IMG/VR virus record: IMGVR_UViG_3300017990_000016
Source: a virus
Reading direction: 5' to 3' (one strand)
Length of the DNA stretch: 64,000 nt
Shown: positions 4,523 through 63,576 of the stretch, one piece after another
Numbering within the stretch: position 1 is the stretch's first letter
Layout: every line of letters begins with the position of its first letter
Notes under the pieces: model-generated
Seen by the model: the letters and a program-made list of their open reading frames with translations, nothing else
Database searches by the model: none
Told to the model about the DNA's origin: nothing
Made by a program: the position numbers and the translations under genes

Positions 4523-4745
4523 CGTAAATATCTCCTATTTCTTCATATCCTTCTTTCTCTTTATCAATATGCCTCTTGTCTATTTTAGCACCTATAACTG
4601 AAAAATCAATTCCAAACCAATATTTAAGTGCTATTAAAACAAGATATATCATTACTGCAAGAAGAAAAATAAAAAGTAAAAATCTAAGAAACACTTTCAC
4701 CGCCTCCTGTAGGATTTTCATAATACATAGAACTTCTAGCAGCAT
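4503..4745 (-). CDS. small membrane protein
   Basis: 80 aa with one TM (FLLAVMIYLVLIALKYWF). Confidence 0.35.
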   Translation of the reverse strand: MLLEVLCIMKILQEAVKVFLRFLLFIFLLAVMIYLVLIALKYWFGIDFSVIGAKIDKRHIDKEKEGYEEIGDIYDGKKKS

Positions 4746-8278: not shown

Positions 8279-9169
8279 ATGGCAAATATGGCTAACTATA
8301 TATATTTCACTTTAGGATTTTCTAAATTTAAACAAGATAGACTTACGGGCAAAACTGAATCTAGAGGTAGAGACCCACTACAATTTGAACAAAATATTGA
8401 TAATGTATTACAAAATGTAAAAGTATTTGAAATAAGTGATTCAATAAAGAAGATGCTATTACTGACTAATACTCCAACAGACAATGAAAATCTTCATCTT
8501 CCATTTGAAAATATGTTCATAGATACAGAAATAATTAAGGAAGAATTAGATGAGATATGTCCTAATTCTGGAGTAGATGGAATAAAAGGTATATTATTTC
8601 GTGTAAATGATTTATTTGTAGATGATGATAATACAATAAACAACATAGGTATAGGAGATAAAGTTGTTGGAAAGAATCTGGCAATTACTGCATTATGTCA
8701 AGTCAATGATTTTGAGTATACAGAATTCAATACTTTGGGCTATCCGTTATGGGTTGAAAAAGAATATGAAAATACTCAATATCAAGAAACTACTTTCGTT
8801 AAGAAAAAAGTGAAGAAATTACTATATAACTTTGTTGTGAATTTCTTAAACTTTATCAATAATCCAGAAATCGAATACTTAGAACATAAGAGAGACGAAA
8901 AAACAAATGCAAGAAGAATTAGACAAAGAAAAATTCCACTACCAAATTCAATAGAAGTCAAAGTTACTGGTACATTAAAAATATATTTAGATAGAATAAT
9001 ATCTTATGAGAAGTTCAATTATTCTCATAGGTTCTGGGTAAGAGGACATTTTAGAACACTAAGAGATGAGAGATATAAAGAGAATGTAGGCAAAAGAATT
9101 TGGATATTACCATTCATAAAAGGTTCAGGAATATTAGTTAACAAAGCTTATGAGGTAGGTAAAAATTAA
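8279..9169 (+). CDS. hypothetical protein
   Basis: 296-aa ORF with no recognised motif. Confidence 0.55.
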   Translation: MANMANYIYFTLGFSKFKQDRLTGKTESRGRDPLQFEQNIDNVLQNVKVFEISDSIKKMLLLTNTPTDNENLHLPFENMFIDTEIIKEELDEICPNSGVDGIKGILFRVNDLFVDDDNTINNIGIGDKVVGKNLAITALCQVNDFEYTEFNTLGYPLWVEKEYENTQYQETTFVKKKVKKLLYNFVVNFLNFINNPEIEYLEHKRDEKTNARRIRQRKIPLPNSIEVKVTGTLKIYLDRIISYEKFNYSHRFWVRGHFRTLRDERYKENVGKRIWILPFIKGSGILVNKAYEVGKN

Positions 9170-11831: not shown

Positions 11832-12049
11832 TTTGCTCTATTAACTATTACACTTACAACTAATCCCATTGTAGTACCAAGGAATATAGCATAAGATATT
11901 GTTCCAAGTATTACCCAAGTGGGATTACTATAATAGCTGCTTATTCCGTTCATAGTTCTTTGTATCGTAGCATAAACTAGTGCTGCTCCCGATATTAACC
12001 ATAACGACCAAGCTATTATTTTCCACATTAATTTATTATTTTTTGCCAT
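11828..12049 (-). CDS. small two-TM membrane protein
   Basis: 73 aa with two hydrophobic helices. Confidence 0.4.
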   Translation of the reverse strand: MAKNNKLMWKIIAWSLWLISGAALVYATIQRTMNGISSYYSNPTWVILGTISYAIFLGTTMGLVVSVIVNRAK

Positions 12050-18000: not shown

Positions 18001-19035
18001 ATATTGAGAGTTGAAAGCTTGAGACCAAGAACCAGATTCACCTGTCCAATTATAATATGGAGTTTGATATGTATTATAAATTAAACCATATCCCATTGAA
18101 TAATAAGTACCATCATCATCATCTGAAACTCCTGAAGTTATATCAGTTACAGTTACAAATTGGTCATCAGGTCCATAAAAATCTGCTCCATTTTGAAGCC
18201 ATTCTGCAGGACTTGGAGAATAATCAACTGTATATAATGGGTCTACATATATATTATTAGAAGCACCATAACCTATAGTACCAACTAACAATCCTTTTAT
18301 TGAACCCATTTCTGCAACTTCCATTAAGCTAGTTGTTCCTTCTGGCATATCTGTCCAATCAAAATGATGTCCAATTCTTTCTTGAAGTGCATTATAAAAA
18401 CTGAAATGTTTACTTACCGAATATGGTCCTTCAACTCCTACTAAATCTATCCATTGGTCACCATCATAAATATATCTAAATTTGTTTGGGTCATCTGGAA
18501 TAAAGAAATAACCAAATCCAGTATCTGTAGGAGAAACTCCATTAATAGTGATATTGATAGTAATTTTAGTTTCAGCAGTTTCATTCATATCAAGTTTAAA
18601 TTCATGAATATCTATATCTGCAGTTCCAGTTGAACTTAAATCATCATATCTATAACAAGTAAAAGTTCCAGAACCATTAGCAGTTAATGATAACTCTTGC
18701 GTAGAAGGTGTAACATCATAAGTACCCGAATTTCTTAAAGGACATAAATACCATTTAGAATTAGCAGGATGTTTGAAAGCAGGAACGAAAAACATTTTTC
18801 CTATAAATTCATTATCTTTAGCAAGACCTATTTCTCCTGGCGAAGTTTTACTAACTCCTATATAATCAGCTGAATTATCTACACTATTAACTTTCAAGTA
18901 CCACCAATCAGAATTTTGACCTGCTTCTATATATCTTTGTGACATTGGAGTATACATTTCTCCAAAAACTAAGGGAAGTGAGATTAATGAAACTAATAAT
19001 ATTACTAGAACTAAGTTATGTTTGCGGTTAACCAT
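12049..19035 (-). CDS. giant secreted surface protein (2328 aa) with internal ~180-aa tandem repeats and C-terminal TM anchor
   Basis: Signal peptide MVNRKHNLVLVILLVSLISLPLVFG. At least 4 repeats carry the core IY[DSG]YLQNT[IL]YP[EA][IV]D and heptad-like N/I/L-rich segments. Many N-x-S/T sequons. C-terminal helix PVLFAASFMMFLVVFVRRK. Confidence 0.85.
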   Translation of the reverse strand: MVNRKHNLVLVILLVSLISLPLVFGEMYTPMSQRYIEAGQNSDWWYLKVNSVDNSADYIGVSKTSPGEIGLAKDNEFIGKMFFVPAFKHPANSKWYLCPLRNSGTYDVTPSTQELSLTANGSGTFTCYRYDDLSSTGTADIDIHEFKLDMNETAETKITINITINGVSPTDTGFGYFFIPDDPNKFRYIYDGDQWIDLVGVEGPYSVSKHFSFYNALQERIGHHFDWTDMPEGTTSLMEVAEMGSIKGLLVGTIGYGASNNIYVDPLYTVDYSPSPAEWLQNGADFYGPDDQFVTVTDITSGVSDDDDGTYYSMGYGLIYNTYQTPYYNWTGESGSWSQAFNSQYNDTSYASATADETHQFYNFDFDIPPSSIIDNITVRIDAWKANAGQDIYFDSIELSYDNGTTWTDPQSISSLTTSEVTYLRHGLWGRAWTYDEINEQLRVRIDPKGIGTARIDWVSVKVDYSVADVNNSNYTTMNGKWSQTYDISKNWYLRLRKISSGVAQIFVYPYINDTHINVSEGTSKYLPGTGWFNIPVDDLMAWQIDQGFNYTTLRFGSTTGEHDISEMRLREEAGDVEDPVITNCSINDTYLYGAETVRIQCYYSDNSDVESVEGVVSGATYNFTQLDGIWHQDLTCGDDIDDGDYNWASTTAYDLAGNDATETPNLDFTCIYNHDPVIEYVTLPTSCRHDCVVTFNVSDNESDQVNISGFTWDIVIPYAHFDHPLPSQYLTDLNTSPTGLEYEIVVNLSAFGVIVYPLVYTTIEVMDEYGDTDSASSGYCSMNNYPRNLEVDTGSSYGRGDDFLIVIEVTEFSGVAVTVGNITIDIYYPNMTIWMEELQTIVSEGNGHHYYNGTIPNLAPYGDYFVTVHYEEDYGHNMFQVKPYHDYIEDILADLDELNISLDNSTYEILTSINTTTQDVKNYLINNIYPEIDEIEELVGNLSIDMQNNFTHTLQEMDNNFTLVFQRLDQIDENITEIDNSLIALDLLVNDVNSTLYYEININEQKLDDLHTNVSYIRSYLVNQIQDSLNAINLTTENIYDYLQTDMFNLLIQINTTVDDIYDYLQNTLYPEVDNAEEKLDELLVNTSNIWTELVSVHSDVTQNYNELQLVKSMISNVNTTLKNEIDENEAKLVIIDSVVDLILEKINQTIIPSLDNIENNISDMQIDLDTIKGYTDSLETGQQYILNNLTFIENRIDDIDNDIADVKSNLLNVNGSLHSRFDIIDINISEIIEVIWTLEWKLDCNNSVNRICDKLDNLQTSAEQINTTVNDIEVYLQVNMTNDLSYIINVVNQINATTTSIYSYLQNTIYPEIDQTEELLGNVLTNTSNIWDKLLVIENQSVDNYNEIIVVETMITSVNDTLNNVETNIINEIDENEGILNGINSTVENIQTRILTIVEPALTNIQNNITDMQLDLEIIKNYTDTLEGGQVDILNNLSAIEGQIANLNTTFSADLSSLNTSLHNRFDTIDINLSSIRTEVEYIEAKLDCNHTTNIVCDKLDNLQVSITQVNTTSNSIKSYLEGTVTNYLININATVEDIYGYLQNTIYPAIDEVELKLNQTLDNHTILYNKMIEIQGNVTTNYNEIQVAQNLIYLTNISLHSKLDAVNLSIVNEVNENEVKIDAVNSTVEIIKNLLQTVIQPQLDDIENNITDMQNDFEILKVGQTNILNNISLTETNILNELNSIYASMNLSFNNTLSAISNVNSTLLYELGLINSTLYNELQIIKAYTDTLESGQQTILDAINASELRIISNITNATSTILQNLTDLSLTIEVDLDNLSDEVIEAINDTENNIINNMTVLLNDTETTILTNLSIEIGNLETNVINEIDITEQNIINNLTQIETNLNVSLTNIENKIDAINSSINVLQLSIDSLNGSLYQQFNNLQVNITDILNAIDDVELEFNCSQTNESICDILINVRNNTIQINNTLNELQLVVEGNWSTYFTDINYTVHSIDDYITNTMYPTIVEYFENATIATLTDMVRVVITERYSTELTVYNPYWNNIAPDSVPLISLYDSTGAVIVTDANMTLVETGIYNYNYTVAASANPGTWTSVVKVTVNGEEQKIYDKWYVVSNPTEITIEAVSLCGNTVTADIRITNEGTTSYEYIYNYWTTDNPFANYEDSDVYDRGQASKLIQPGKTFVTRVYLQRPDTNNVHYVRARVYYGEYSFATDSFTNQLKCIERNTITALLPLEIEPAKIEDMIKATPVLFAASFMMFLVVFVRRKTWERIRKSKENPIYIWYNHPSEVNLYIIVENKFTVELREHNPDREFGKGKIIYRNDFDSLKDAKKFAKIYMEENPEGPDYVKSKYTVKDQKPIAEEEA

Positions 19036-23801: not shown

Positions 23802-24018
23802 TTTTCAACACCCTGTGATATTTTCCTTGTATATAAAATGCAACCATCAATAATATGAATGAAAGTAATAGTCCAACTGAAGCAAATAAAAAGAACCATA
23901 ATTGGTTCTTAAAAATAGATGTAATATAAACTACAAAAAAGCATATAAAAGAAACACTTAACAATATGTATATGCCTTTAAGCAATATCCTCAAAGAGAT
24001 TCCATTCGTCTTCATCAT
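23740..24018 (-). CDS. small two-TM membrane protein
   Basis: 92 aa. Confidence 0.4.
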   Translation of the reverse strand: MMKTNGISLRILLKGIYILLSVSFICFFVVYITSIFKNQLWFFLFASVGLLLSFILLMVAFYIQGKYHRVLKSGKRDDSENEIEDNNIISQD

Positions 24019-24688
24019 GTTCTATCATTATGTAAAAGTCATTTGCCAAATCAACAGCAAATTTCTTATCATATTTTTCTCCCCTTGAAATCCAAGGTAC
24101 TATAGCTATACAATGTCTATGTTCAAGTGAGCATGATAATTGACTTTTTATACCTACAGTATTCAGCATTGCAACATACATGTTAGCCAAATTATCACAA
24201 TCACCACCATTATGGTATGTATACAAAGGTGAGTATATAGCTCTATGATAGCTGTTTGGCACATATCTAACTTTTTCTCTTAGTCTGTTATACAATTCTA
24301 AAGAATAACAATCACTATCATCACCGTGACAAGGTTTTGTAAGTTTAATTGTTAAATCTCTTATATCATCTGCTTCTTGTCTGTTAATAGGAGCATAAGT
24401 ATTTTTTGTAAGTTCAGTAACCATAAAATTAGGACCAACAATAAAAAATAAAACAATAGCTGCTATACCTACAGCAGCTAGAAAATTCATTATGACTGCA
24501 TTTATTATACTAAAGATACTTTCTATTGTAGTAGGTTTTTCTTCATGTCCACATTTATTGCATTTATATTTTATCAAATTTACTTTCAAGTTCATATTTC
24601 TTGCCTCTAAAACTTTTATTTGGTTTCCATAATACTGTACGCCCTTTTTCTCCTTTCGGTTTAGGTGGTATTTCTTGTAAATTGGCAT
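23978..24688 (-). CDS. membrane-anchored transglutaminase-like cysteine protease superfamily protein with N-terminal Zn ribbon
   Basis: CNKCGHEE, then a TM. GGDCDNLANMYVAMLNTVGIKSQLSCSLEHRHCIAIVPW matches the TGase-like core (G-x-C...A-x-L...GI...H...V). Start may be an internal Met. Confidence 0.5.
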   Translation of the reverse strand: MPIYKKYHLNRKEKKGVQYYGNQIKVLEARNMNLKVNLIKYKCNKCGHEEKPTTIESIFSIINAVIMNFLAAVGIAAIVLFFIVGPNFMVTELTKNTYAPINRQEADDIRDLTIKLTKPCHGDDSDCYSLELYNRLREKVRYVPNSYHRAIYSPLYTYHNGGDCDNLANMYVAMLNTVGIKSQLSCSLEHRHCIAIVPWISRGEKYDKKFAVDLANDFYIMIEHDEDEWNLFEDIA

Positions 24689-30617: not shown

Positions 30618-31598
30618 TTATTTTTTACTAAATAGCTCTTTATCAATTGGGTCCAAATCATCCCATTCTAAATCTTTCCAATTAGGACCTGGTATTTTGA
30701 TATTCAATTTTCTAGCTACATAATCAAGGTTAGTACAAGGTTCTTGATTTAAAGCTATACCTTTCTGCATTGTAATATCTTCTTGAGTTGCATGTCTACC
30801 ATCTGAAATATGTGGTATACCAAGTATCTCCCAAAATCCATTAACTGCAAGTGTAGTATCCTTTCTTGACCAATCACATGTTGGCCTCATATAATGCGCA
30901 AGTAAAGGAAATGCCTTTAAAACTTCATCACGCAATTTATATGCAATTCCAACACAATCTTCCATCTCAGTTGTTTGCATTCTTCTAGAACATAATTCTT
31001 GTAGTGCTTTATAATTAATACTCATTATGAATCTGTGTGATGCGTATAATCCTGTAGCACATCTAGCAGCCCAATTTGGTATCCCAGCTTTTTGAATTTG
31101 TTTGTATAGACTTTTATTCCTTCCAACAACCCATTTGTATTTTTCTGCTGACTCTGTATCCTTAATTCTTGAAGGTATAATATAATCAAGGTGGTTTAAG
31201 TCATTATCTTTCCATCCTTTACTAGCAAATACCACACCAATTCTAGCTCTTGCAATTTGGTCAAAAACTGCTCTTGAACAATTCTCAATACTAAAAGCAA
31301 AAGCTGGTGCTTCAAGTGCTAACGGAAGTGCCTTCCTGTCAAGTACACTTTTGACAACATAAAATCTTGATATTGGACTTAAATTCTCCCATTTATCATT
31401 GTATGTTCCCCAAGTACAAAGTGCCATATTACACATTGTCTTATATGGATTTATTGAATTATCAGTAAGCTCAACTTTCAAATCTTTCAAATCCAAGAAT
31501 CTAGTCTTAGTTTCTTTTTCTTCATAACAAGCTTTTTTGATTTCTTCTCTCGTATTTTCATTCAACATCTTCTCTACCTCCAATTTTATCGACATCAA
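30618..31598 (-). CDS. ThyX (flavin-dependent thymidylate synthase)-like protein, divergent
   Basis: FSIENCSRAVFDQIARARIGVVFAS aligns to the ThyX SRA..Q..RHR(x7)S block, but RHR is replaced by RAR. SINYKALQELCSRRMQ aligns to the ThyX NxRELxxFxxLR block. Confidence 0.6.
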   Translation of the reverse strand: MMSIKLEVEKMLNENTREEIKKACYEEKETKTRFLDLKDLKVELTDNSINPYKTMCNMALCTWGTYNDKWENLSPISRFYVVKSVLDRKALPLALEAPAFAFSIENCSRAVFDQIARARIGVVFASKGWKDNDLNHLDYIIPSRIKDTESAEKYKWVVGRNKSLYKQIQKAGIPNWAARCATGLYASHRFIMSINYKALQELCSRRMQTTEMEDCVGIAYKLRDEVLKAFPLLAHYMRPTCDWSRKDTTLAVNGFWEILGIPHISDGRHATQEDITMQKGIALNQEPCTNLDYVARKLNIKIPGPNWKDLEWDDLDPIDKELFSKK

Positions 31599-32927: not shown

Positions 32928-33755
32928 CTAGTTTCTAACTGATTTAAATTTTTCATACCAATTTTTCTGGTAAGCATGCATTGTTCCTGTTGCCTTTTTT
33001 CCACGGTCTCCTACAATTCTAAAGTAATGTTGAGCATTTGATTCTCCGATATATACAATTGTATTAAACTTATAACTTAACCTACCTTGTCCGGCAGGTT
33101 TTACTCCAAGTTCAACAAAATTCTTTGATGCTTCATTAACTTTGCCTTTAGACATTGCCATTTCAACTTCCATATCTTTTTCTGCGCAAACAGCCAGAAC
33201 ATTACATTTTGGTCTTAGTACTAGATTATCAATAATGAAGTTATCTAGCTTTTTGATATACTGCCATTTCTGGCCATCAAACATACCAAATTTCTTAGTG
33301 TCTTTTGCGCTTCTGACAATATACATTGTTACATCTCCACCTGAAGCATCTTCAATGAATTTATTCTGAGCCATATCCCAGAAATCACTCATTAAGTCAA
33401 CAACAATCCAGTCATTTGGTTTGCTTATTTGCTTTATATTTGGTAATAACCTATGTGCCTCATTAATACTTTCAACAAAGTAGTATATAACTTTGTCTTT
33501 CACATCATCAATCTTGTCAGCAAAATATTGTTTGAATGTCCTAGCAACTCCACCATCAGTATTTAATATCCTAACTACACTTCCAGATTTGACTACTTCT
33601 TCAATCAATGAGCAATATGCCCAAGTTTTACCTATCTTAGCAGAGCCAAATAATAGTATAGTTTCTTTCTCATCTTCTAACCATTCAGTTGAAGATGGAA
33701 TCGTCATCGTCTGCGAATGGGTCGGTTGGGAATTGGTCTCCTCCAGTAGACTCAT
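32928..33755 (-). CDS. RecA-fold P-loop ATPase (AAA_24/Sak4-like candidate recombination ATPase)
   Basis: Walker A LLFGSAKIGKT. Walker B DWIVVDLMSD. About 260 aa. Adjacent to a putative SSB. Confidence 0.5.
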   Translation of the reverse strand: MSLLEETNSQPTHSQTMTIPSSTEWLEDEKETILLFGSAKIGKTWAYCSLIEEVVKSGSVVRILNTDGGVARTFKQYFADKIDDVKDKVIYYFVESINEAHRLLPNIKQISKPNDWIVVDLMSDFWDMAQNKFIEDASGGDVTMYIVRSAKDTKKFGMFDGQKWQYIKKLDNFIIDNLVLRPKCNVLAVCAEKDMEVEMAMSKGKVNEASKNFVELGVKPAGQGRLSYKFNTIVYIGESNAQHYFRIVGDRGKKATGTMHAYQKNWYEKFKSVRN

Positions 33756-49456: not shown

Positions 49457-50425
49457 ATGTGTAAATTAGCATTTTCAAAAACAAAAGATGGAACTTCATA
49501 TAGAAAAGCTGTAGCTATGATTAAACATCAAGAAAATGTAGTTGCTGGACATTCTACTGGAATTGCCTGGAAAGATAACCAAGGTGTTCACTTAAGAAAA
49601 GCTATTGGAAAGATAATAAACTTTATGGCTAAATATCCTGATATACCTAATACTAATATGGCTTTAGGCCACTCAAGATTTGCAAGTGTCGGTGAAATAA
49701 ATTTAGAAAATCAACACCCAATAAAAATATTCTATCACGGAAAAAGAATTGGCTATGGAATACATAATGGTACCTGGATGGATTATTACAAATATGAATA
49801 TATGAGAAATCCTAACCTAGTTAATAAGACAGATAGTGCATTACTATTTACTATTTATGGAGATATTCTTGATAAATATGGGAATACAAGAATAAATAGA
49901 ATAAGAGCATTGGCAACAATGGGCAGAATTGCAACAGGTTCATATAGTTATTCTCCCGGTTTTGATGATAATTTTATCATAATGTTTGATGATGGACAAG
50001 TTATATTTGGTGGATGGGAGTTAACTTATAAATCATCTGAAGATAAAGTCGGAATTATGACATTTGGTTTACCAAACAAAGTTGATTCAGATTCTGTTTA
50101 TGAAGTTGCAGGGTTTAATATTAACAAATATAAATTTAATGATTTCAGAAATTATGTATTGAAACCAAAAGAACAATGGTACCAAGACACTGAAACAGAA
50201 TTAACTTGTAGCACAGAAAGATGTTCAAAAATCATAAGACTTGAAGGCAAAAGTTGGAAGCTAGTAAGTAATAATTTTAAGACAAGACCAGCAGCTAAAC
50301 TTTATGCTGAGATGACAAAAGATAGATATGGTATTAATTATAGAGTACTAAGAAACAGGAACGGCAGATGGAGCTTATATACGGAGTATACAAAAAATGG
50401 TAGCAACTTGGCATGTACTTATTAA
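49457..50425 (+). CDS. class-II (Ntn) glutamine amidotransferase-like protein
   Basis: Starts Met-Cys (MCKLAF), so Cys1 is exposed after Met removal. ALGHSRFASVGEINLENQHP matches the GATase-II signature (IAHTRWATHGEPSEVNAHP in GlmS). Confidence 0.6.
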   Translation: MCKLAFSKTKDGTSYRKAVAMIKHQENVVAGHSTGIAWKDNQGVHLRKAIGKIINFMAKYPDIPNTNMALGHSRFASVGEINLENQHPIKIFYHGKRIGYGIHNGTWMDYYKYEYMRNPNLVNKTDSALLFTIYGDILDKYGNTRINRIRALATMGRIATGSYSYSPGFDDNFIIMFDDGQVIFGGWELTYKSSEDKVGIMTFGLPNKVDSDSVYEVAGFNINKYKFNDFRNYVLKPKEQWYQDTETELTCSTERCSKIIRLEGKSWKLVSNNFKTRPAAKLYAEMTKDRYGINYRVLRNRNGRWSLYTEYTKNGSNLACTY

Positions 50426-51371
50426 TGTAACTGATAATCACAGAAAATATTATTCTGCTGAAAAAAGAGATGGTGCATATACAGGTAGAGTTGTATTTGG
50501 AAGAATAGGTATTTCAAGAAGAATAATGCAATATCCAGATGAGTTTACTGTTCGTCAAAAGATTGCTAGAAAATTAAACGAAGGTTATGTTGAATTATAC
50601 ACAAGTCATACTCAAGGTTTTGTAAGAAATAATGATGTAGCACAATTTAGTGGACCTACTACTAATCCAAGAGCAAGATATGCTCAAGCAGCAGTGAGAA
50701 GGAGAAGAACAACAAGAAGACCAAGCACAGTCAATTTTCAACCTCCAGATTTTCAACCTCCTGCTTATTCTGTTGATAGACAAGGATATATAAGAAAATA
50801 CCGTTCTAATTATAAAAGAAATACTCCTCAATCTTCGCAAACTGCTAGAAGAGCGCAATATAATGTTTATACAAAAACAAATTTCTCAGGAAATAGAACT
50901 CTTGAAACTAAAGCAAAAGAATTTCACGATAGTATTCCAGATAGTCAAGTAAATACAAAAGTACCATTTGGATATGGAAATGGAGAAACTTTTGGTAGAG
51001 ATGTACCAAAGCATTTTTATGTTACAAAGGATAGAGTTTTTGTTGCAGCTTTTGCAGCTGCTAGGAATGGTGAATGTAAATTTTTCTATATAAAATCTGA
51101 TGCCTCAAATTATTCTGAGATTATAGATGTAATGTTTAAAAAAATTGTTAATAGAGCAGATAGCGGAAATTATATTACTATTAATATTGCTAGTGAGACA
51201 GCAAAAGATAAACTTGAGTCTTATTTGAATAATAAGAATATAACCTTTTCTATTCAAAGCAGAGCAGCTTATTGGCAGTTTGTAATAAATAGAACGTTAG
51301 CCACAAGACGCATTGTGGAACAATCAAATAGACAAGTAATATCCAGAATCAGTAGGTGGCAAGACTTATGA
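50397..51371 (+). CDS. WGR-domain protein with Arg-rich linker
   Basis: WHVLINVTDNHRKYYSAEKRDGAYTGRVVFGRIG...EGYVEL fits the WGR domain pattern. Followed by RRRRTTRR and a domain of unknown function. Confidence 0.55.
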   Translation: MVATWHVLINVTDNHRKYYSAEKRDGAYTGRVVFGRIGISRRIMQYPDEFTVRQKIARKLNEGYVELYTSHTQGFVRNNDVAQFSGPTTNPRARYAQAAVRRRRTTRRPSTVNFQPPDFQPPAYSVDRQGYIRKYRSNYKRNTPQSSQTARRAQYNVYTKTNFSGNRTLETKAKEFHDSIPDSQVNTKVPFGYGNGETFGRDVPKHFYVTKDRVFVAAFAAARNGECKFFYIKSDASNYSEIIDVMFKKIVNRADSGNYITINIASETAKDKLESYLNNKNITFSIQSRAAYWQFVINRTLATRRIVEQSNRQVISRISRWQDL

Positions 51372-53689
51372 CAATAAAATGGGGTTTTGGAGTTGAAAAA
51401 GAAACAGTACTTATTGGTTACGATGACCCATTAAAAGAATTTACTTACAAAACAAGGTCTGGAGCTAGATTAAATTATGGCCCTGAAAGTTCAGGAATAA
51501 GAATGGGAGAATTTGGATATATGGGTGGTGATAGTACAGTTATTTCTAGTACTGGTGGTTATGGTTATGAATTTGCTACAAGAGGAGCTAGAGTAACAAA
51601 AGACCCAAAACAAACTATAATAGGTTTTGCAAAAGAAGTAGAAGCTGCAGCACAAAGTGAAGTTACACCAGCAAGAGCAAACAAAAGAAGTATACCATTT
51701 GGCACTGTACCAACAATACCCAGATATTCAGGCAATGTACCTGGAAGTTATCATATTCATTTAACTATGCCTTATGACTCAACTAAATTACCAGTTAGAC
51801 CTGAAAATTTAGAATATTGGAAAAAATACAAAGAAAAGTTATTGATAGGACTACAATGTCTTAGAGTAATACAACCATTAATATTAAGTGTTACTGGTGG
51901 AACAAGTTCACAATCAATAGGAAATCCTGAACATCTTGAAGCAAGTGAAAGACAATTATATATTTCAGGCGCATCTGGAATTGGAAATGTCAAGTTAACT
52001 CCGGGTTCTGATGCTGCAAGGAATATAATGGGCGCAAGAAGTTCTGGACACCACGGTTCAACTCAAAGAGCAATTTGGAGAAGTAATTTGCAAAGAGAGT
52101 TTAGAGATGTTGGTTCTTCTTCTTTTTATGATATATCACCAGAAAATAGAGTTGCTGGAATACCAACGATTGAACTTAGATTTTTAGACACTTTTGATAC
52201 TCGAGGATTGTATGATGTATTTCGCACAATATGTCTTTGTCTTGCCCACGGAGACAATATGACTACATTACATACTGACCCAGTAAAAAGCAAAGCTTGG
52301 TCTGATTCAATGGAATCAGTAGCAAAAGAAGGTTGGAATGCATATTTACCTACAGACTATATTATATATATTAAACGTAAGTTAAAAATTAAGATACCAA
52401 TTCCAAGAAAATCTAAAGTAATTCGTGCAGATATTTTGCTTAGACAAGTTACTGAAGCATTGTGGGCAGAAAATAAAAATGATAGCTGGATAAAATCTTG
52501 GACAAGAGAAACAACTAAACCTTATATTCATAATTTTAACAAAGATAGCTGGGAGTTTTATATGATTATGGCTATGAAAGAAAATCAGGCATTAAGAAAT
52601 AAATTCTTTAAGTTTTTAATGATTATTGATAAAATAGATTCAAGGTCATCAACTGGAAAATTAAAGGTTAGATGGGAACAAAACAAATATGGAATAAGAG
52701 ATATTATACTTGATGATGATGTGATTGGCATTGATTTTGGAGCAGAAGATACTGAAGATTTATTACACTTTATGTCAAGATATAAATTCATAACTTTACA
52801 TTTTGACAATGATGGCAAAGTAGATTATATTAAAAAATCATTCAATGATAAAGATGATGCAATTAGATTAATGAAGAATATGCTTAATGAAAAGAATATG
52901 CTTAATGAAAGTGAGAATGGTTTATTGGCAATCAGTGAAGAAGAAAGGGAATCTGTTGAAGATGAAGTCGGAGAAGAAATACAAGAAGAACAAGAAGTAA
53001 GAACTGAACGAGTAAGAGAAGTTGGCGAAATAAGATTAGCTGATGTTGCAATATCACTGTCAAGAGTTGAAAGCGAAGATGCAAGCAATATGCTTGAAGA
53101 TATGAAAAATGTAATTAATTCGTGTCAATTTAGAAAAGGTGGCATTGTACAAAATATGCAATCAATTGAATATGCTACAATTACACATTCTCCTACTAGA
53201 ACAGAAATCTTTTGTTTTTGGAAAAGAGTAAATAATTCAACAGTAAAAATGTATGTACACCCTAATTTTGCACAAAGTTTATCATTAACTAATTGGAAAA
53301 CAAGAATGAAAACTAAAATGAGGTCTATACATTCTCTAACTAGAGTAACTACATTTCAAGATGAACTTACAAATACACAATTTTTCAATAAAATACAAAG
53401 AGTTATTGAAACAATTCCTGTAGGCAAAAGAAAATCAGTAATTGAATTATCAAGAGCTGGAGTTAAGAGATTAAATAATATGGGTGTATATATTGTCAGT
53501 TATAATAGAGGAGAAAAATACTTTATTGCCAATAAGCAAAAAGTTTCTCAGTTAAGAAGACAATATAGAAAGAACTTAAAAAATCTAAAATATATACCGT
53601 ACCAAAAAAATTATTATGTTGAATATACTGGTAATTCATTGTTGCTGAAACAATCAGGTGTAACAAAAGATAAGCTGGTGGTAAAATGA
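51356..53689 (+). CDS. GCS2/glutamine-synthetase-fold carboxylate-amine ligase (amidoligase) domain protein with large C-terminal extension
   Basis: N-terminal WGFGVEKETVLIGYDD (the GvE.E..lvD motif). IELRFLDTFDT matches the GCS2 hiElRvlD motif. 777 aa. Confidence 0.55.
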   Translation: MARLMTIKWGFGVEKETVLIGYDDPLKEFTYKTRSGARLNYGPESSGIRMGEFGYMGGDSTVISSTGGYGYEFATRGARVTKDPKQTIIGFAKEVEAAAQSEVTPARANKRSIPFGTVPTIPRYSGNVPGSYHIHLTMPYDSTKLPVRPENLEYWKKYKEKLLIGLQCLRVIQPLILSVTGGTSSQSIGNPEHLEASERQLYISGASGIGNVKLTPGSDAARNIMGARSSGHHGSTQRAIWRSNLQREFRDVGSSSFYDISPENRVAGIPTIELRFLDTFDTRGLYDVFRTICLCLAHGDNMTTLHTDPVKSKAWSDSMESVAKEGWNAYLPTDYIIYIKRKLKIKIPIPRKSKVIRADILLRQVTEALWAENKNDSWIKSWTRETTKPYIHNFNKDSWEFYMIMAMKENQALRNKFFKFLMIIDKIDSRSSTGKLKVRWEQNKYGIRDIILDDDVIGIDFGAEDTEDLLHFMSRYKFITLHFDNDGKVDYIKKSFNDKDDAIRLMKNMLNEKNMLNESENGLLAISEEERESVEDEVGEEIQEEQEVRTERVREVGEIRLADVAISLSRVESEDASNMLEDMKNVINSCQFRKGGIVQNMQSIEYATITHSPTRTEIFCFWKRVNNSTVKMYVHPNFAQSLSLTNWKTRMKTKMRSIHSLTRVTTFQDELTNTQFFNKIQRVIETIPVGKRKSVIELSRAGVKRLNNMGVYIVSYNRGEKYFIANKQKVSQLRRQYRKNLKNLKYIPYQKNYYVEYTGNSLLLKQSGVTKDKLVVK

Positions 53690-53958
53690 GAAATACAGAT
53701 ATACCTTTAGTATATAGATATGAAATTAGAATAAAATTTTATGATGATGATTTTAATGTCAGAAAAGTAAAAACAGAATTATATAGATTAAGAAAACATG
53801 CAGAAGAAAGAGCAGAACAAATAAAAAGAGAACATACAAGATTGAAAATTATCAGTACAATAGATATAATAAGACTTGAAGATAGAGAAGTAATAAATAC
53901 GGTGATGTCTAAACATGCCAAGCAGAAGAAGGGTAGGAGCTCATATAAGAGGAAATAG
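53686..53958 (+). CDS. hypothetical small basic protein
   Basis: 90-aa ORF, translationally coupled. Confidence 0.4.
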   Translation: MRNTDIPLVYRYEIRIKFYDDDFNVRKVKTELYRLRKHAEERAEQIKREHTRLKIISTIDIIRLEDREVINTVMSKHAKQKKGRSSYKRK

Positions 53959-54802
53959 TATAGTTGGAAATAAACAAAGGTTGAATGAAAAAGCTATAAA
54001 GGTGTTAGCTGCAATTAAATTCCATCCTAGTAGTATCACTCGCGAAGAGATTATGTTGAATTCTAATTTGGAAGCAGAAGATGTTGAAAGACAAGTTAGA
54101 TTATTATTGAATTATGGACTAATAAATAATCATAGTAGATTTCCACCATTTCCAAGAGAAGGTTGGAGAGTATTTACTTCTCCAGAAAAGCATACTGAAA
54201 TTGTCAAGATTCTAAAAGACCACGGTTATGAAGATGAAGCAACAAGAGAAACTAGAGAAGGTTTAGGTGGTTATTTTCCTACTGGTTTAGAATTGGAAGG
54301 AACAGGAAGACAACCAAATCGCGGTAGAGATTATCCACCAATAGTACCAATTAATGAACAACTTGAATATAAGTCAGAAACATTAAGTGTGATGAGAAAG
54401 TTCAGAGATGAGAAAAAACCTTTTAGACCAAAACAATATTCAGATGAAGCAAAAGAAAGTAAGCTTAAGAAATTTAAATGGTTATCAGAAGAACTATCAA
54501 GAATATACGAAATTCCAGCACCAGAAGTTGAGATTGGAATAATGGATGAAGAAACTTGGAAAACACCTTCATCATCGGGAAGCTCTTATTATACTAACAT
54601 AAATCATAAAATCATTATGGAAGGTAGGTTTAGTGTGATTACTTTCCTTCATGAATATGCACATGCAAGAGGATTTGACGAGACTGATGCTACAATTTGG
54701 TCAGCAAATCTATTCAAAAGAATATTCCCAGTTTCTTATTCTAAACTTGAGAGAAGTGCTCATACTTTGGTACAACCAGGGCCAGCACCTTTTGAACTAT
54801 AG
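53915..54802 (+). CDS. winged-helix + HExxH zinc-metallopeptidase-like protein
   Basis: N-terminal wHTH-like ITREEIMLNS...VRLLLNYGLI. C-terminal ITFLHEYAHARGFDETD matches HExxH. Confidence 0.5.
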   Translation: MPSRRRVGAHIRGNSIVGNKQRLNEKAIKVLAAIKFHPSSITREEIMLNSNLEAEDVERQVRLLLNYGLINNHSRFPPFPREGWRVFTSPEKHTEIVKILKDHGYEDEATRETREGLGGYFPTGLELEGTGRQPNRGRDYPPIVPINEQLEYKSETLSVMRKFRDEKKPFRPKQYSDEAKESKLKKFKWLSEELSRIYEIPAPEVEIGIMDEETWKTPSSSGSSYYTNINHKIIMEGRFSVITFLHEYAHARGFDETDATIWSANLFKRIFPVSYSKLERSAHTLVQPGPAPFEL

Positions 54803-54851
54803 TTCAATTAAAATTGGAAAATATTATAAACTTTCAATATATATTATTTAT

Positions 54852-55769
54852 ATGGAACATAAACCCGAAACTTTAGAATATGCAAAATATCTTCATAAAG
54901 TCAGGAAGAAAAATGGAGATAATTTAGTCAATTCTACTATAGAAAGATATTGTGACATTATTGATTCTACAATTATTGAGCTAAATAGAAATAAAGGTAA
55001 TGAAGAAAAAATATTAGAACTTATGAATAGAAATATTATAAAAAAGAAAAGTATGATTTTGTATTCAGCTTTTCGATACTATTTATTATATATAGGATAT
55101 GATTTAGATTATGATAAAGAAAAGATATTTGATAAATTAAGAGCTCCAAGAACAAATGCAAACGCAGCATCATCTAAAAGATTTTTGCAAAGTAAAGTTC
55201 TTAGTAAAGGAGAATTGAAAAGATTATTCGCAGAAACTGAAGATATGAAAATGAAATTACTATTATCTATGCTATATGATACTGCATGCAGAAGAGATGA
55301 ATTATTGAATATCAAATTTGAAGATATTGTTGAATCTAATGAAGAAGATAGAAAACATGGTATTTATGCACAGATTCATATTATGGGTAAGGGCAAAAAA
55401 GCAAGAACTGTATATTTAACATCATTATCATATAGGTTATTGAATAGAGTATTCAAAGAAAAAGATTCAAAACAAAGACTATTTATATTTTATAAGGTTG
55501 ATGGAACAACACCAAAAGTAAAACAGGATGATGCTTTATATTTTAAGATAAGAAGTTTAGGAAAAAATATATTAGATAGACATATACATCCGCATTGTTT
55601 TAGACATACAAAGTTAACTCATATGGCAGATGATGGAGCAGATTTATTAGAAATTGCCGGATATGCAGGACATGAAGATGTTAGCACATCACAAATATAT
55701 ATTGAAATTTCAACACATATTGGAAAAAGAGGTTTTATAAAAACTGTAAAACCTATTGCGGAGGTATAA
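54852..55769 (+). CDS. tyrosine recombinase / integrase
   Basis: Catalytic tetrad context: TACRRDEL (R), KGKKARTVYL (K), HPHCFRHT (H-x-x-R), GHEDVSTSQIYIE (Y). Start set at MEHKPETLEY. Confidence 0.85.
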   Translation: MEHKPETLEYAKYLHKVRKKNGDNLVNSTIERYCDIIDSTIIELNRNKGNEEKILELMNRNIIKKKSMILYSAFRYYLLYIGYDLDYDKEKIFDKLRAPRTNANAASSKRFLQSKVLSKGELKRLFAETEDMKMKLLLSMLYDTACRRDELLNIKFEDIVESNEEDRKHGIYAQIHIMGKGKKARTVYLTSLSYRLLNRVFKEKDSKQRLFIFYKVDGTTPKVKQDDALYFKIRSLGKNILDRHIHPHCFRHTKLTHMADDGADLLEIAGYAGHEDVSTSQIYIEISTHIGKRGFIKTVKPIAEV

Positions 55770-59022: not shown

Positions 59023-62000
59023 ATGAAGAAATCGTTAATATTCGGACTATTATTTATATTATATATAGTATCGGCATTAGCAAATGAAACTACGACAATA
59101 ACAGAAGCTGGACTTACAATATCTGCAGATAAATACTATTATGGATATGGAGACACAGAAATTTGTTTTAATTTAACTTCTACTACACAAAATAATTTTA
59201 CAGTTGAACTTAACAATTTAGACCACTCATACCTTGATATTGATGAGTACTGCTATTACGAGACTATGGTAACAAACTTCTCAACAACATGTTATGAAAA
59301 TACTACAGATAGTTCTATAATATGTGATATTAATCAAACATATACAGAAATGGAAACAGGTAGTTTTTCTACACCATTCTTTTATGATATACCTTTTGAA
59401 TTTCGAAGCGAACCAGAATTATCATTCTTGAATCAGACAAACGGAACACATACAACAAGTGAGTTAAAATGTAAATTAAAATCATATTTAGATAATAATC
59501 CATTAATTATCAGAGAAGAGAAACCATATAGATTTTGTATACCTATAGTAGGAGAATTAGGTTATGAACAGAAATTCGATATTAATGTTAATTTACAAAA
59601 TGGTACAACAGTTGAATTAGACCCAGCAATCACTTTAGCTGGAGTAACATTAACAAACCTAAATACACAATATTATGCAAGTGGTGGAGGAAATTGTATC
59701 GATGGTTCTAATGACGGTACAAGAAATCATTGGGATTTAGTTGACACTAAAAATGATGTTAATGCTTTAGTTTCCTCAGGAATTACAGTTGGTGGTTCTA
59801 GGTCAGGAAATTCTGGTGGTGCTTGGATATTTATAAGATGGTTTTATACTGATGGTACTCAAACAGATGGAAGTCAAATTCAGTATACCTCAACTTCAAC
59901 TCAATATAAATCACATACTAATCCTAATCCTAGTAAGTATGTTAATAAAACAGAAACTTGGTGTACTGGAAATGAATATTTCTATGCTGCTGGTGCAGCA
60001 CAAACAAGATTTGCAAATGCTACAAGAGGTTATTATAGAACAAATGAATATGTAGCATCATATGATTTTAATGCATTATACTTAGATAGTGATTGTGATT
60101 CTACTGATGATATTCAAGTTGGAACATCATATGGAAGTTATGAAGATGTGTCAGATTTATCAGAATATTCGTTTGGAGAGTTTAGAAATACTTTCTTCAT
60201 TAATCTTCCTGACACTGGAGAATGTACATATCTAACTATGAACGCTACTAATTTAACAGTTCCTAACATTTATTATGAATATCCAGATACAGACCCTTCG
60301 TCTGGTTATGAAGGAACTTCACAAAGATTTCAAGTTGAATTTAATCATCCATTAGATTTAGATATGAATTGTACTTGGAAGATAGATGATTCAATAGTTG
60401 AAACTGAAGATGCAATTGATATTGGCGGTGGAGATTACAAATGTAATTATGATTTTGTTCTTGGTTTTGATGATGCAGGAGAATATAATGTAAGTGTTGA
60501 AGTTGAAGATACAGATAATAATATAGTATTAATAGATTGGAATTTTACAGTTATAGATTATCAAGTTCAAGCTACTCCAGTTTCTCCAGCAGATGATGCT
60601 GATGTTTATATCGGATTAAATAACTTCACTTTCATATTAAACTATACAGCTGATACTCCATTAGATAATTGTAGTATAATGAGGAGTGAGTATTTCTTTG
60701 AACATGAACCACGTTATCAATTTAAAGAAGGTTACATAAATGCTTCAGATGAAAACGATGTAAAAGATATGCTTATTTACGATAATAAAATATATGTCTT
60801 GCACTTCGAAAATGAGATATTGATATATTCTTTATCTGGAGTATTATTAGAAAGACATACTTTAGATACTTCAGAGGGTTATTATTATGCTGAATCATTT
60901 GTAGAGATTGGCGGTTCAATATATGTAATGCAGACAGATGAAGATGGAACTGAAAACGATGGTTCTTTATACACTTCAGATATATCATATGTTACATCAG
61001 TTGGTTCGTTTGGAGATGATGATGCAAGAAAAATTTCAAAAGATGATAACTATTTTTATATATTAAGATGGGATGACAGTAATAATATTTACTGGGTAGA
61101 ACGATTTGACCTTTTAGGAAATCCTTTAGCTGGATTCAATATCACGAGTCACATATTCTTAAATGAGTTTACTGATGATAGAAACATCGAAGACTTCCAT
61201 TGGGATAGTAGTAGAGGTAGATGGTATTTCGGTATTGAAGATACTATTAATCAGCATTATATTGCTGTTCTTGATGAGAATTTTAACTTTACTGGTGAGA
61301 TAATATACACAGGAGAATTCCCATCAGATTTTAAACCTCCAATAAGTATTTGGACAGATGAAGATTATTTATATTTCTTATCATATGGCGGAGATTATGG
61401 AAGACTATATTATAATGAAAGAAATGACCCTGTTATGGTAACAGTTGATGCTGGAAGTTTAATTAATAACTCAGAAAATACAGTTGAAGCTAATCTAGGA
61501 GGAACAGCATTTACTGATGGTTATTGGTATGTGAGATGTTATGATACTTCTGGAAAAGTTCAAACTGGAATGCATGAAGATTATCATGAATATGATAGTA
61601 AAGATACTAAACCATATGTAAGAGCAGCAAATCGGGCAGACCCAGAAAATTACCATGTTAGAATATATGAAGGAAATGATTTACTTTTCTTTGTAATTTT
61701 TGATGATGATGACAGTTCATCTTTTACTGGAAAGGTTTATGTAAACGGAACAGAAAGAACTGAATTGGCACAATCAACAACTGGCTGGGGAGGAATGTTT
61801 ATGAGCTGGTATGGCAATTATACACAAGCTGGAATTTGGAATATAACTTTTGAAAAAATCGATGATGATTTGAATAGTGGTTATCATTCTTGGTTATTAG
61901 AAATTATAGATGAACCACAACCACAAATTCTTGATGATTTGAATATGTGGCAAGAAGGAGAAAAAGTATATTTCAATTGGAATATGACTGACGAAAATAA

Positions 62001-63576
62001 TTCAGACCACTCACATCCTAAGTTTACTCTTAATGGAGTAACAATTAATGCAGCACCGGGATTACTTTGGGAATTAAATGAAAGTTATCCTATAGGAGGC
62101 TATAAGATAATAGAGGTAGGATTGACAGGAGATAGTATTTGGATTACTGATGAAAATTTTAATCTTTCTATATGGGATTATGATATGAATCCTGTATTAG
62201 ATGCAGTTACAGGAGGAGCATTTTATGGTGTTTCACCTTACTATGACCCAAACGGAATGGGACTATTTGATACTGATGAATCGGGTTGGATATTATGTTA
62301 TAATGATTCAGGAAATCTTGGAGTAGCTTTTGCTCAAAGTTCTGATTTAGATATACCTTGGTCTACAACTTTTACTTCAATGGCTCCAGTATATATAAGA
62401 GGAGGCTGTTTCCCTTATGGTGATATAAGATTATTTAATGAATCTCCTGATGATACTATGAGAGATGGTCACCAAGCTAGAGTTTGGTCAGTACATACTA
62501 TGAGTGGAACATGGGATAGTAGTTGGAGGTCTTATCATGCATATCCAGACCAATTAGGTAATACTTGGTGGTATGGTAGAGATTGGGATACTGATGATGG
62601 AGAAGTCAGAGATACTATACAAATATACAATAATATGTATTACTTAGTTCAAGATGGAAATAATGTGGAAATAATGAGACGGTGGGCAATATCAGGAGTA
62701 ATGAGCAGCATTATACTTGATATTGATACTATATTAACACTTCCATCAGGACAAGAAGCTTATGGTATGGATTATAGAAATGGATATTTGTATGTAGTTA
62801 CATCATCTGGAGATGGGGTAAATAATACATTATGGAAATTCAGACATTATATTGATGTAACAGATTACTTTGATTCAAGTGATAGTGGAGGAAATTCTGC
62901 CGAAAATGGAGATAATCTCACATTGGAAGTAATGTCTGATAATAGTATAAGATGGGGAAATACATTATCAACTTCATTGCTATTATCAGGATTGCCAGAA
63001 CCTGAGGAAGAGGAAGAAGAAGACCCTGAAGGTGGAGATGCTTCAACTTGGTATAAAGATTGGCAAGAAGAATTTGGACAAGAAGAAGAGGAACCTGCTG
63101 GAATTGACATAGTAACTGGTGCATTATTTGCAACAGTAGGATTAGGAGAAGAAGGTAAAACTGATATTCAAATTGATTCATTGTCAAAAGAATTCTGGGT
63201 ATTTCCAGGTGATGAAAAGAAAGAAGAAATGACAATATACAATACAGAAAATACTCCAAGAACAATTACGCTAGAAATATTAGATGAAGGAGATGCTTAC
63301 GAATGGTTAAGCTTCAATGGCAATAATAGAAAAGTATTTACAATTCAAGCTTATGATGATTCAACTATAAAATATAATATTGTCGTACCAGAAAAAATAA
63401 AACCAGGAGATTATATGGCATATATTTCAGTTGATGCAGGAGACAATATAGCTACATATGAGATTACAATACATGTAATGAAAGAAGAATTAAAACCAGT
63501 AATAATAATAGGTGGAGTTGCTGGATTATTAGTAATATTAAGTGGAATGTATTTATTGATATTCAAACCAATATAA
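59023..63576 (+). CDS. 1517-aa secreted surface protein with beta-propeller-like repeats, poly-Glu tract, CARDB-like domain and C-terminal TM anchor
   Basis: Signal peptide MKKSLIFGLLFILYIVSALA. Repeated Y-rich blades (IYVLHF, YFYILRW, YLYFLSY). PEPEEEEEEDPE. C-terminal VIIIGGVAGLLVILSGMYLLIFKPI. Confidence 0.85.
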   Translation: MKKSLIFGLLFILYIVSALANETTTITEAGLTISADKYYYGYGDTEICFNLTSTTQNNFTVELNNLDHSYLDIDEYCYYETMVTNFSTTCYENTTDSSIICDINQTYTEMETGSFSTPFFYDIPFEFRSEPELSFLNQTNGTHTTSELKCKLKSYLDNNPLIIREEKPYRFCIPIVGELGYEQKFDINVNLQNGTTVELDPAITLAGVTLTNLNTQYYASGGGNCIDGSNDGTRNHWDLVDTKNDVNALVSSGITVGGSRSGNSGGAWIFIRWFYTDGTQTDGSQIQYTSTSTQYKSHTNPNPSKYVNKTETWCTGNEYFYAAGAAQTRFANATRGYYRTNEYVASYDFNALYLDSDCDSTDDIQVGTSYGSYEDVSDLSEYSFGEFRNTFFINLPDTGECTYLTMNATNLTVPNIYYEYPDTDPSSGYEGTSQRFQVEFNHPLDLDMNCTWKIDDSIVETEDAIDIGGGDYKCNYDFVLGFDDAGEYNVSVEVEDTDNNIVLIDWNFTVIDYQVQATPVSPADDADVYIGLNNFTFILNYTADTPLDNCSIMRSEYFFEHEPRYQFKEGYINASDENDVKDMLIYDNKIYVLHFENEILIYSLSGVLLERHTLDTSEGYYYAESFVEIGGSIYVMQTDEDGTENDGSLYTSDISYVTSVGSFGDDDARKISKDDNYFYILRWDDSNNIYWVERFDLLGNPLAGFNITSHIFLNEFTDDRNIEDFHWDSSRGRWYFGIEDTINQHYIAVLDENFNFTGEIIYTGEFPSDFKPPISIWTDEDYLYFLSYGGDYGRLYYNERNDPVMVTVDAGSLINNSENTVEANLGGTAFTDGYWYVRCYDTSGKVQTGMHEDYHEYDSKDTKPYVRAANRADPENYHVRIYEGNDLLFFVIFDDDDSSSFTGKVYVNGTERTELAQSTTGWGGMFMSWYGNYTQAGIWNITFEKIDDDLNSGYHSWLLEIIDEPQPQILDDLNMWQEGEKVYFNWNMTDENNSDHSHPKFTLNGVTINAAPGLLWELNESYPIGGYKIIEVGLTGDSIWITDENFNLSIWDYDMNPVLDAVTGGAFYGVSPYYDPNGMGLFDTDESGWILCYNDSGNLGVAFAQSSDLDIPWSTTFTSMAPVYIRGGCFPYGDIRLFNESPDDTMRDGHQARVWSVHTMSGTWDSSWRSYHAYPDQLGNTWWYGRDWDTDDGEVRDTIQIYNNMYYLVQDGNNVEIMRRWAISGVMSSIILDIDTILTLPSGQEAYGMDYRNGYLYVVTSSGDGVNNTLWKFRHYIDVTDYFDSSDSGGNSAENGDNLTLEVMSDNSIRWGNTLSTSLLLSGLPEPEEEEEEDPEGGDASTWYKDWQEEFGQEEEEPAGIDIVTGALFATVGLGEEGKTDIQIDSLSKEFWVFPGDEKKEEMTIYNTENTPRTITLEILDEGDAYEWLSFNGNNRKVFTIQAYDDSTIKYNIVVPEKIKPGDYMAYISVDAGDNIATYEITIHVMKEELKPVIIIGGVAGLLVILSGMYLLIFKPI

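Follow-up and report, generated by a model that had tools for sequence, protein, structure and literature searches.

A viral gene block pairing a glutamine-synthetase-fold ligase with class-II amidotransferase-like and zincin-like partners: a variant of the phage amidoligase cassette

Many podoviruses carry a cassette of genes for an amidoligase, a glutamine amidotransferase (GATase) and a gamma-glutamyl cyclotransferase (GGCT), sometimes joined by an ATP-grasp protein, and the functions assigned to it are hypothetical only (PMC5498523, PMC11706807, PMC6209634); the proposals in the literature invoke peptidoglycan-type peptides or secondary metabolites. Comparative genomics places such cassettes in phiEco32, LUZ24, PaP3, PA11, RIO-1 and HP1, where a ligase of glutamine synthetase (GS)-like fold is linked to a stand-alone class-II glutamine amidotransferase (GAT-II). 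Here we describe an operon with the same pairing in the IMG/VR virus record IMGVR_UViG_3300017990_000016, a 64,000-nt stretch of DNA that we refer to as the window and in whose positions all coordinates are given unless another element is named (Table 1). The unit comprises five co-conserved, overlapping genes, all on the + strand, encoding a GAT-II-like protein (gene 1), a protein with WGR-like and GNAT-like domains (gene 2), the ligase (gene 3), a small basic protein (gene 4) and a winged-helix protein with a zincin-like domain (gene 5). We see in it a variant of that cassette and not a wholly new kind of system; its new features are an unannotated ligase family held in common with giant viruses, a zincin that recurs as a partner, and the fusion of WGR-like and GNAT-like domains.

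A preliminary description of this locus had reported a GAT-II, a WGR-domain protein and a GCS2-type ligase encoded by three translationally coupled genes. All three open reading frames (ORFs) are present, as are the motifs it had listed (GHSRFASVGE...NQHP, GVEKE and IELRFLD). Genes 1 and 2 overlap by 29 nt, a 4-nt ATGA overlap joins gene 2 to the ligase gene and recurs at the ligase/gene 4 junction, and the gene 1 start codon lies 1 nt past the stop of the preceding ORF. The three genes recur in the same order in other contigs, at 28-59% identity, which together with their length (~320-780 codons each, in a window of ~30% G+C) argues against chance ORFs. The three genes are co-conserved; the unit, however, extends to five genes by the addition of the small protein and the winged-helix/zincin protein, and the GNAT-like domain of gene 2 had been overlooked.

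The complete order (GAT-II, WGR-GNAT-like, ligase, small protein, winged-helix + zincin) is kept in every contig with enough flanking sequence, among at least seven other metagenomic elements: L001, L002, L003, L006, L005 (which ends inside gene 2), the more distant L008, and the P0010 locus. A zincin-domain protein also neighbours the ligase in two distant elements, L009 and L010, the first of which has a GATase_6 gene as well. Several of these blocks lie close to replication genes, namely a family B DNA polymerase (PolB) in L002, PolB and a DNA ligase in the P0010 locus, and a primase in L009; the P0010 polymerase contains an intein and its DNA ligase is ATP-dependent.

Gene 3 encodes a protein of the GS/glutamate-cysteine ligase (GCL) fold with intact Glu, His, Glu and Arg motifs for binding metal and ATP. 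A carboxylate-amine ligase region of this fold (aa 1-~430) is followed by a winged helix (aa ~440-510), an acidic disordered linker (aa 518-552) and an alpha/beta C-terminal region (aa 553-777). The motifs G12xE14xE16, H133xH135 and E273xR275xxD278 occur in the same order as in genuine E. coli GshA (25/150/328) and YbdK (15/136/237), the first spacing between motifs (121 residues) is that of YbdK, and the closest folds are YbdK and the GCL enzymes. The proposed GCS2-type assignment thus holds for fold and catalytic motifs but not for sequence profiles. The window protein matched nothing in Pfam up to E 10, none of six homologs matched GCS2 (PF04107), Glu_cys_ligase or Amidoligase_2 (PF12224), NCBIfam likewise returned no match to these three families, and PADLOC and PHROGs gave nothing meaningful. 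Searches of PDB sequences with phmmer and hmmsearch were empty, and tblastn against 50,697 phage genomes found no match. Since hhalign, comparing the ligase family with genuine E. coli GshA, aligned the His motif only, and not significantly, we place the kinship at the level of fold and motifs and not of family membership.

An exhaustive profile search of 1.84 billion representatives recovered 202 ligase clusters, defined at 50% identity. About 20 of these are as long as the window protein; the remainder are 500-700 aa, and the common core spans profile positions 120-430. Ten distant members had no match in Pfam. Of 113 relatives with a recognisable GSYH-like motif, 103 retain the three catalytic motifs. 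Scanning IMG/VR with the broad family yielded at least 148 relatives, mostly on giant-virus metagenome-assembled genome (MAG) contigs. Foldseek against viral structures agreed, in that uncharacterised giant-virus proteins (ChoanoV1 A0A5B8IGP8, CroV E3T4S0, Dasosvirus, Yasminevirus and Edafosvirus; E 1e-15 to 8e-8) outranked phage proteins named 'amidoligase'. A profile of the window branch (A1) matched 78 of 79 giant-virus loci at a median E of 9e-21, and the reciprocal giant-virus profile (A8) matched the window ligase at E 6e-41. The giant-virus proteins are true homologs of ligase residues 1-~510, helical region and winged helix included; the corresponding DNA segment is listed in Table 1. 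The preliminary description had credited the ligase with a very large C-terminal extension, a view that holds for the last ~225 residues, which are restricted to the window branch and missing from the giant-virus homologs, but not for the first ~510. Pattern scans for the window branch in IMG/VR, JGI metagenomes and GTDB genomes found no further copies.

By sequence, the gene 1 protein is a stand-alone N-terminal nucleophile (Ntn) amidohydrolase or amidotransferase whose predicted glutamine/gamma-glutamyl pocket is intact. Pfam GATase_4 and GATase_6 matched it at E 1e-4, below cut-off (21.8 versus 23 bits and 22.8 versus 27 bits), while NCBIfam matched GlmS (E 5.6e-8) as well as PurF, and PHROGs gave phrog_26360 (E 1.8e-12). 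In an alignment with PurF from the PDB, R74 coincides with the glutamine-binding Arg, N104-G105 with the oxyanion Asn-Gly and D126 with the alpha-amino-binding Asp. These residues and Cys2 are invariant in all four aligned sequences (the window protein and three orthologs), each of which starts MCKLA and so places Cys2 at the nucleophile position, as does L006. Several orthologs also have precomputed GATase_4 matches at E <= 1e-5, so that the GAT-II call is upheld despite the sub-threshold Pfam scores. The closest protein from a cultured virus is a 'putative glutaminase' of PhiCh1; its neighbour gp41 was considered as a ligase counterpart and rejected, being unrelated to the ligase. Some orthologs, those of L003, L008 and the P0010 locus, share with the window protein a C-terminal extension of ~80 aa with the pattern W..L....F.T...A....YRV....W.LYT, possibly a small beta-alpha-beta-beta module, which L001, L002 and L006 are missing.

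The gene 2 protein consists of a WGR-like region (aa ~1-70), a basic low-complexity linker (aa ~85-150) and a GNAT-like region (aa ~155-300). At full length it had no match in Pfam, nothing meaningful in NCBIfam, PADLOC or PHROGs, and empty phmmer and hmmsearch results against PDB sequences. The N-terminal 80 aa fared differently. Judging membership by a profile match plus a W-G-R-(I/V)-G ... GY signature, we found WGR as the sole Pfam match, in register, in five of five orthologs, at 14-19.6 bits against a cut-off of 22. A profile of six such N-termini aligned by hhalign to E. coli YehF, annotated with PF05406, over 60 columns (P 0.008), and WGRIGTNG occurs literally in two orthologs, where the window protein reads FGRIG. 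The WGR domain proposed in the preliminary description is therefore probable but not proven: the sub-threshold matches are consistent, while the full-length scan is empty. In the P0010 locus the gene 2 counterpart is apparently split into two genes of 94 and 293 aa, which would fit a separable WGR module. An AlphaFold2 model built on an alignment of two sequences reached a predicted local distance difference test (pLDDT) score of 47 overall, with 60-74 at residues 155-300 and 30-45 in the WGR part, which such a thin alignment left undefined. With low confidence, the model suggests a GNAT-like C-terminal domain. Inspection by eye found no acetyl-CoA pyrophosphate-binding loop (Q/RxxGxG/A) after FFYIKS (aa 229-234) at the end of strand 4 in the window protein or its orthologs, and we accordingly call the domain GNAT-like and assign it no cofactor.

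Gene 4 and gene 5 likewise gave nothing meaningful in Pfam, NCBIfam, PADLOC or PHROGs. Gene 4 has orthologs at the corresponding place in L001, L002, L003 and L006 (E 1e-11 to 1e-13 by phmmer); in an alignment that also includes the L005 and L008 proteins by position, D20, A39 and K76 are invariant, and the orthologs measure 80-117 aa and end in Lys/Arg. Gene 5 (~300 aa) is the best conserved component of the block, at 52-59% identity. Its weak Pfam matches are to TFIIE_alpha and ScpB in the N-terminal winged helix and to Reprolysin_3 and Zincin_1, and its HExxHxxGxxE motif (aa 246-256) is invariant in nine of nine diverse sequences. The HExxH and the third ligand downstream mark the C-terminus as a putative zincin/metzincin-like metallopeptidase domain. 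We considered whether gene 5 might be a mere ImmA-like lysogeny switch beside the integrase and rejected this, as adjacency to the integrase is not conserved and adjacency to the ligase is.

The full-length gene 5 protein had no match in IMG/VR. Its zincin domain, searched separately, defines a family of ~100 clusters (P0157-P0256), chiefly stand-alone proteins of 130-190 aa that carry no Pfam annotation and whose only named members come from Nanoarchaeota and Aenigmatarchaeota MAGs. The copy in L011 (Table 1) is paired with a conserved 149-aa gene downstream. The domain also occurs on 18 phage-like IMG/VR contigs, and by a motif scan ten of these 18 encode classical amidoligase-type proteins (GIEIE...GLHVH...ExR). 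In L095/L096, L098 and L099 the classical amidoligase, the zincin and a GAT-II beginning Met-Cys directly adjoin one another, and annotated amidoligases from phages of Bacillus, Arthrobacter and Geobacillus are homologs of the L098 ligase. Homologs of GGACT, the gamma-glutamyl(amine) cyclotransferase family, occur in four of the 18 loci (L095, L102, L107 and L109). Because the zincin adjoins classical amidoligase and GAT-II genes in phage contigs, and GGACT recurs with them, the window operon fits into the amidoligase network.

A GGCT-like gene elsewhere in the element had been noted in the preliminary description as a possible associate of the ligase genes. It is confirmed as a GGACT/AIG2-like gene, and a link to the block is seen in L008, where a GGACT gene lies 1.3 kb upstream; none was seen in the flanks of L001 and L002. 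The window GGACT is probably an accessory of the operon's network. Two genes downstream of it stands a 296-aa ORF with a homolog (E 1e-30) in the distant element L010.

Set against the phage cassette, the window genome thus has GGACT as well as the linked ligase and GAT-II, and the same zincin domain sits inside classical cassettes of IMG/VR phages. It differs in that its ligase lies outside Pfam Amidoligase_2, in a separate unannotated family common to giant viruses, in its additional WGR-GNAT-like, winged-helix and small-protein components, and in a host that is probably archaeal. Unlike the classical cassette, the window has no second amidoligase, in that no further GxExE/HxH/ExR protein was found in it, and a Pfam scan of 28 window ORFs, which was not exhaustive, gave no ATP-grasp match. 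The arrangement had been put forward as an undescribed one. This is accurate for the ligase, which is unnamed in Pfam, NCBIfam, PHROGs, PADLOC, PDB sequences and phage genomes, but less so for the operon, given its relation to the known cassette.

Other described systems resemble the operon in part. With YbdK/GCS2 and GshA the window ligase has no sequence-profile similarity, and it differs from them further in a 140-residue insert region, the winged helix, the 225-aa C-terminal region and the viral operon setting. In ergothioneine synthesis, the GATase_4 amidohydrolase EgtC removes the gamma-glutamyl group added by the GCS2-type ligase EgtA, a pairing of GCL-fold ligase and stand-alone class-II Ntn amidohydrolase like that seen here. 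In contrast to that pathway, the window holds no EgtB- or EgtD-like genes, and its setting is viral, with nucleic-acid-binding-type domains. It also differs from PafA/Dop in having neither a Pup-like substrate nor a proteasome context.

We consider it about an even bet (probability roughly 0.5) that the operon represents, in an archaeal virus, the viral network of amidoligase, class-II amidotransferase and, in some cases, cyclotransferase, in which an amide bond of isopeptide type is made and afterwards trimmed or reversed. By analogy, the chemistry is most likely ATP-dependent gamma-glutamyl-type amide ligation with amide-cleaving partners. Characterised relatives of the ligase fold include GS, GCL, PafA and GmaS, and from their chemistry the ligase would be expected to activate a carboxylate as its acyl-phosphate at the expense of ATP and then to couple it to an amine, the gamma-carboxyl of glutamate being the likeliest carboxylate. 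The gene 1 protein might either hydrolyse the resulting gamma-glutamyl amide, for which EgtC and EgtA provide a precedent, or deliver ammonia derived from glutamine. GGACT, on the analogy of its family, could free the amine while 5-oxoproline forms, and the zincin may process a peptide or protein partner. The WGR domain, winged helices and basic linkers could mean that nucleic acid is the site of the reaction or directs it, which is the weakest step of the scheme.

A number of observations weigh against this reading. Homologs of GAT-II, zincin and WGR-GNAT are found within 6 kb in none of the 79 giant-virus ligase loci; the giant-virus homologs are solitary, differing from the window in this as in their shorter C-terminus, and a ligase that stands alone there can work without the operon partners. 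The same loci suggest that the operon setting is particular to the prokaryote-type virus branch. The amidotransferase is missing in L010, the window GGACT lies 42 kb from the operon, and in two cellular contigs a member of the zincin family stands on its own. The WGR and GNAT calls depend on sub-threshold matches and a low-confidence model. Having no sequence-level match to any characterised enzyme, the ligase does not allow its substrate to be read from homology.

The gene 1 active site admits a different reading, possible if unlikely, in which the protein passes ammonia from glutamine to the ligase and an activated carboxylate on a peptide, protein or base becomes a carboxamide with no gamma-glutamyl adduct. 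Cys2, R74, N104-G105 and D126 do match the glutamine site of PurF and GlmS, and the overlap of the genes would fit a stoichiometric complex. However, the gene 1 product is an Ntn domain standing by itself and of GATase_4 type, a family whose characterised members, exemplified by EgtC, are known as hydrolases and not as channel-forming subunits; in addition, one gene intervenes between gene 1 and the ligase, and simple amidation leaves GGACT and the zincin without a role. Those two proteins find a place if, as seems unlikelier again, the genes are auxiliary metabolic genes whose ligase, hydrolase, cyclotransferase and peptidase resemble a gamma-glutamyl cycle and make or destroy a host gamma-glutamyl compound of low molecular weight (a thiol, for example, or a polyamine conjugate or cell-envelope peptide). 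Such free compounds are substrates of GGACT and GAT-II, the nearest folds are those of YbdK and the GCL enzymes, and the published views of the cassette point the same way. The WGR domain, two winged helices, basic linkers and 225-aa ligase extension would nonetheless be unexpected in soluble metabolism. We regard as a long shot a nucleic-acid-guided machine for covalent modification: the WGR-GNAT-like adaptor and winged helices would bring the giant-virus-type GS-fold ligase to DNA or DNA ends, where it might gamma-glutamylate or peptide-ligate either the amine of a DNA base or a protein of the terminal or chromatin kind, with GAT-II, GGACT and the zincin as erasers or maturases. If true, this would represent a new viral epigenetic or protein-tagging chemistry and a ligase family linking archaeal viruses to eukaryotic giant viruses.

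Modification of the viral DNA itself had been raised in the preliminary description and has gained no direct support. Here the WGR-GNAT protein and the ligase would attach an amino-acid-derived group to a base, a reading to which we give a slimmer chance still. Amidoligase and amidotransferase genes are reported to co-occur with thymidine-hypermodification clusters, and a GNAT of phage PaMx11 acetylates a modified base (PMC8989533); the operon contains nucleic-acid-binding-type domains, and the block lies near replication genes in L002, the P0010 locus and L009. Yet Pfam and PHROGs scans of the window ORFs, which left out small ORFs and used no dedicated profiles, showed no 5-hydroxymethyluracil kinase, pyrophosphorylase, dUMP hydroxymethylase or TET/JBP. 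The ThyX that the virus encodes is an ordinary one, and a zincin has no obvious role on DNA. Pupylation-like tagging, with the ligase joining the carboxylate of a small protein or peptide to target lysines and the zincin maturing or removing the tag, would make use of the metallopeptidase but is hardly credible, as no small protein with a conserved C-terminal Gln/Glu is encoded, gene 4 has Lys/Arg at its terminus, the small protein encoded upstream in other loci finishes with GYF, GYY or GKF and is absent from the window, and no proteasome link is present.

That upstream protein is small (~96 aa) and very basic, bears the pattern DPxxKGRGxGxYYHRG, and is encoded just upstream of the GAT-II gene in other elements (Table 1); the usual ending is GYF or GYY, L008 has two paralogs ending RKR and GKF, and no homolog was found in the window. 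In L009 and L010, neighbouring proteins carry common N-terminal leaders, which may be targeting or packaging signals: GWKKExxRHRxAYYKGK on four L010 proteins, and HxxSKYGKRFxAG and the calcium-binding-repeat-like FxxGDFDGDGVxNxxDxxPFD on proteins of both elements.

Outside the operon, the element encodes a PolB whose closest cultured relatives are those of haloarchaeal tailed viruses (25-27% identity), a HerA/FtsK-type ATPase and a tyrosine integrase. From these PolB relatives, the PhiCh1 'putative glutaminase' nearest to gene 1 and the DPANN names in the zincin family, we infer a virus of low-G+C archaea. No tRNA or Rfam features were detected in the window, the phage structural families searched had no match anywhere in it, and tblastn with two large window proteins, run for virus classification, found none either; identical genes were found on contigs of 57-68 kb. 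The integrase ORF begins within gene 5, and its start is probably Met68 (54852), ~50 nt past gene 5; this adjacency is not kept in the other elements. Transglutaminases form or cut gamma-glutamyl-lysine bonds, and the transglutaminase-core protein of the window may for that reason share the operon's chemistry. L010, which bears the ligase and zincin pair, likewise encodes a Transglut_core protein.

Table 1. Features of the window and, where an element is named, of other elements
Feature	Position	Strand	Size	Assignment and evidence
Gene 1	49457-50425	+	322 aa from MCKLA start	Class-II (Ntn) glutamine amidotransferase-like
Gene 1, C-terminal extension	50180-50425	+	~80 aa	
Gene 2	50397-51371	+	324 aa	WGR-like N-terminus, linker, GNAT-like C-terminus
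Gene 3	51356-53689 (GTG) or from ATG 51368	+	777 aa or 773 aa	Ligase
Gene 3, part common with giant-virus MAGs (L015-L093)	51356-52890	+		Catalytic, helical and winged-helix segments
Gene 4	53686-53958	+	90 aa	Small protein, Lys/Arg-rich tail
Gene 5	53915-54802	+		Winged helix and C-terminal zincin-like domain
Gene 5, HExxHxxGxxE	54650-54682	+		
Tyrosine integrase	54651-55769	+		Pfam E 2.7e-22
GGACT/AIG2-like gamma-glutamyl(amine) cyclotransferase	7398-7832	+		Pfam PF06094 E 1.4e-15; phrog_2520 E 4.9e-15
ORF downstream of GGACT	8279-9169	+	296 aa	Homolog at L010 12403-13485
SPFH/Band_7 protein	4684-5565	-		E 7.5e-18; also in P0010 element
Very large ORF	12049-19035	-	2328 aa	No significant family match
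Transglutaminase-core protein	23978-24688	-		Pfam E 2.6e-6; predicted membrane segment
ThyX	30618-31598	-		E 1.3e-13
AAA_24 ATPase, borderline	32928-33755	-		E 6.9e-6, 26.5 bits versus cut-off 27
Very large ORF	59023-63576	+	1517 aa	No significant family match
Small basic upstream protein, L001	8035-8304			
Small basic upstream protein, L002	7981-8271			
Small basic upstream protein, L003	2075-2374			
Small basic upstream protein, L006	83-373			
Small basic upstream protein, L008	7240-7845			Two paralogs
Zincin domain, L011	8001-8402			
Zincin domain, L012	581-1285			
Proteins with common leaders, L010	922-5257			
Proteins with common leaders, L009	8466-9999			

Taken for what it means beyond this element, the analysis brings to light an unannotated GS-fold ligase family with intact motifs, of ~200 clusters and at least 148 IMG/VR matches, that lies outside all libraries searched. 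It spans very different viruses, most members being found in giant viruses of eukaryotes and one branch in a tight operon of a probable archaeal virus. The operon context ties this family to the phage amidoligase cassettes, a functional question since 2009, and adds to them a previously unlisted zincin. The chemistry of any one member, once solved, would probably annotate hundreds of viral genes, and a new modification made by viruses, whether of protein, DNA or metabolites, could emerge from it.

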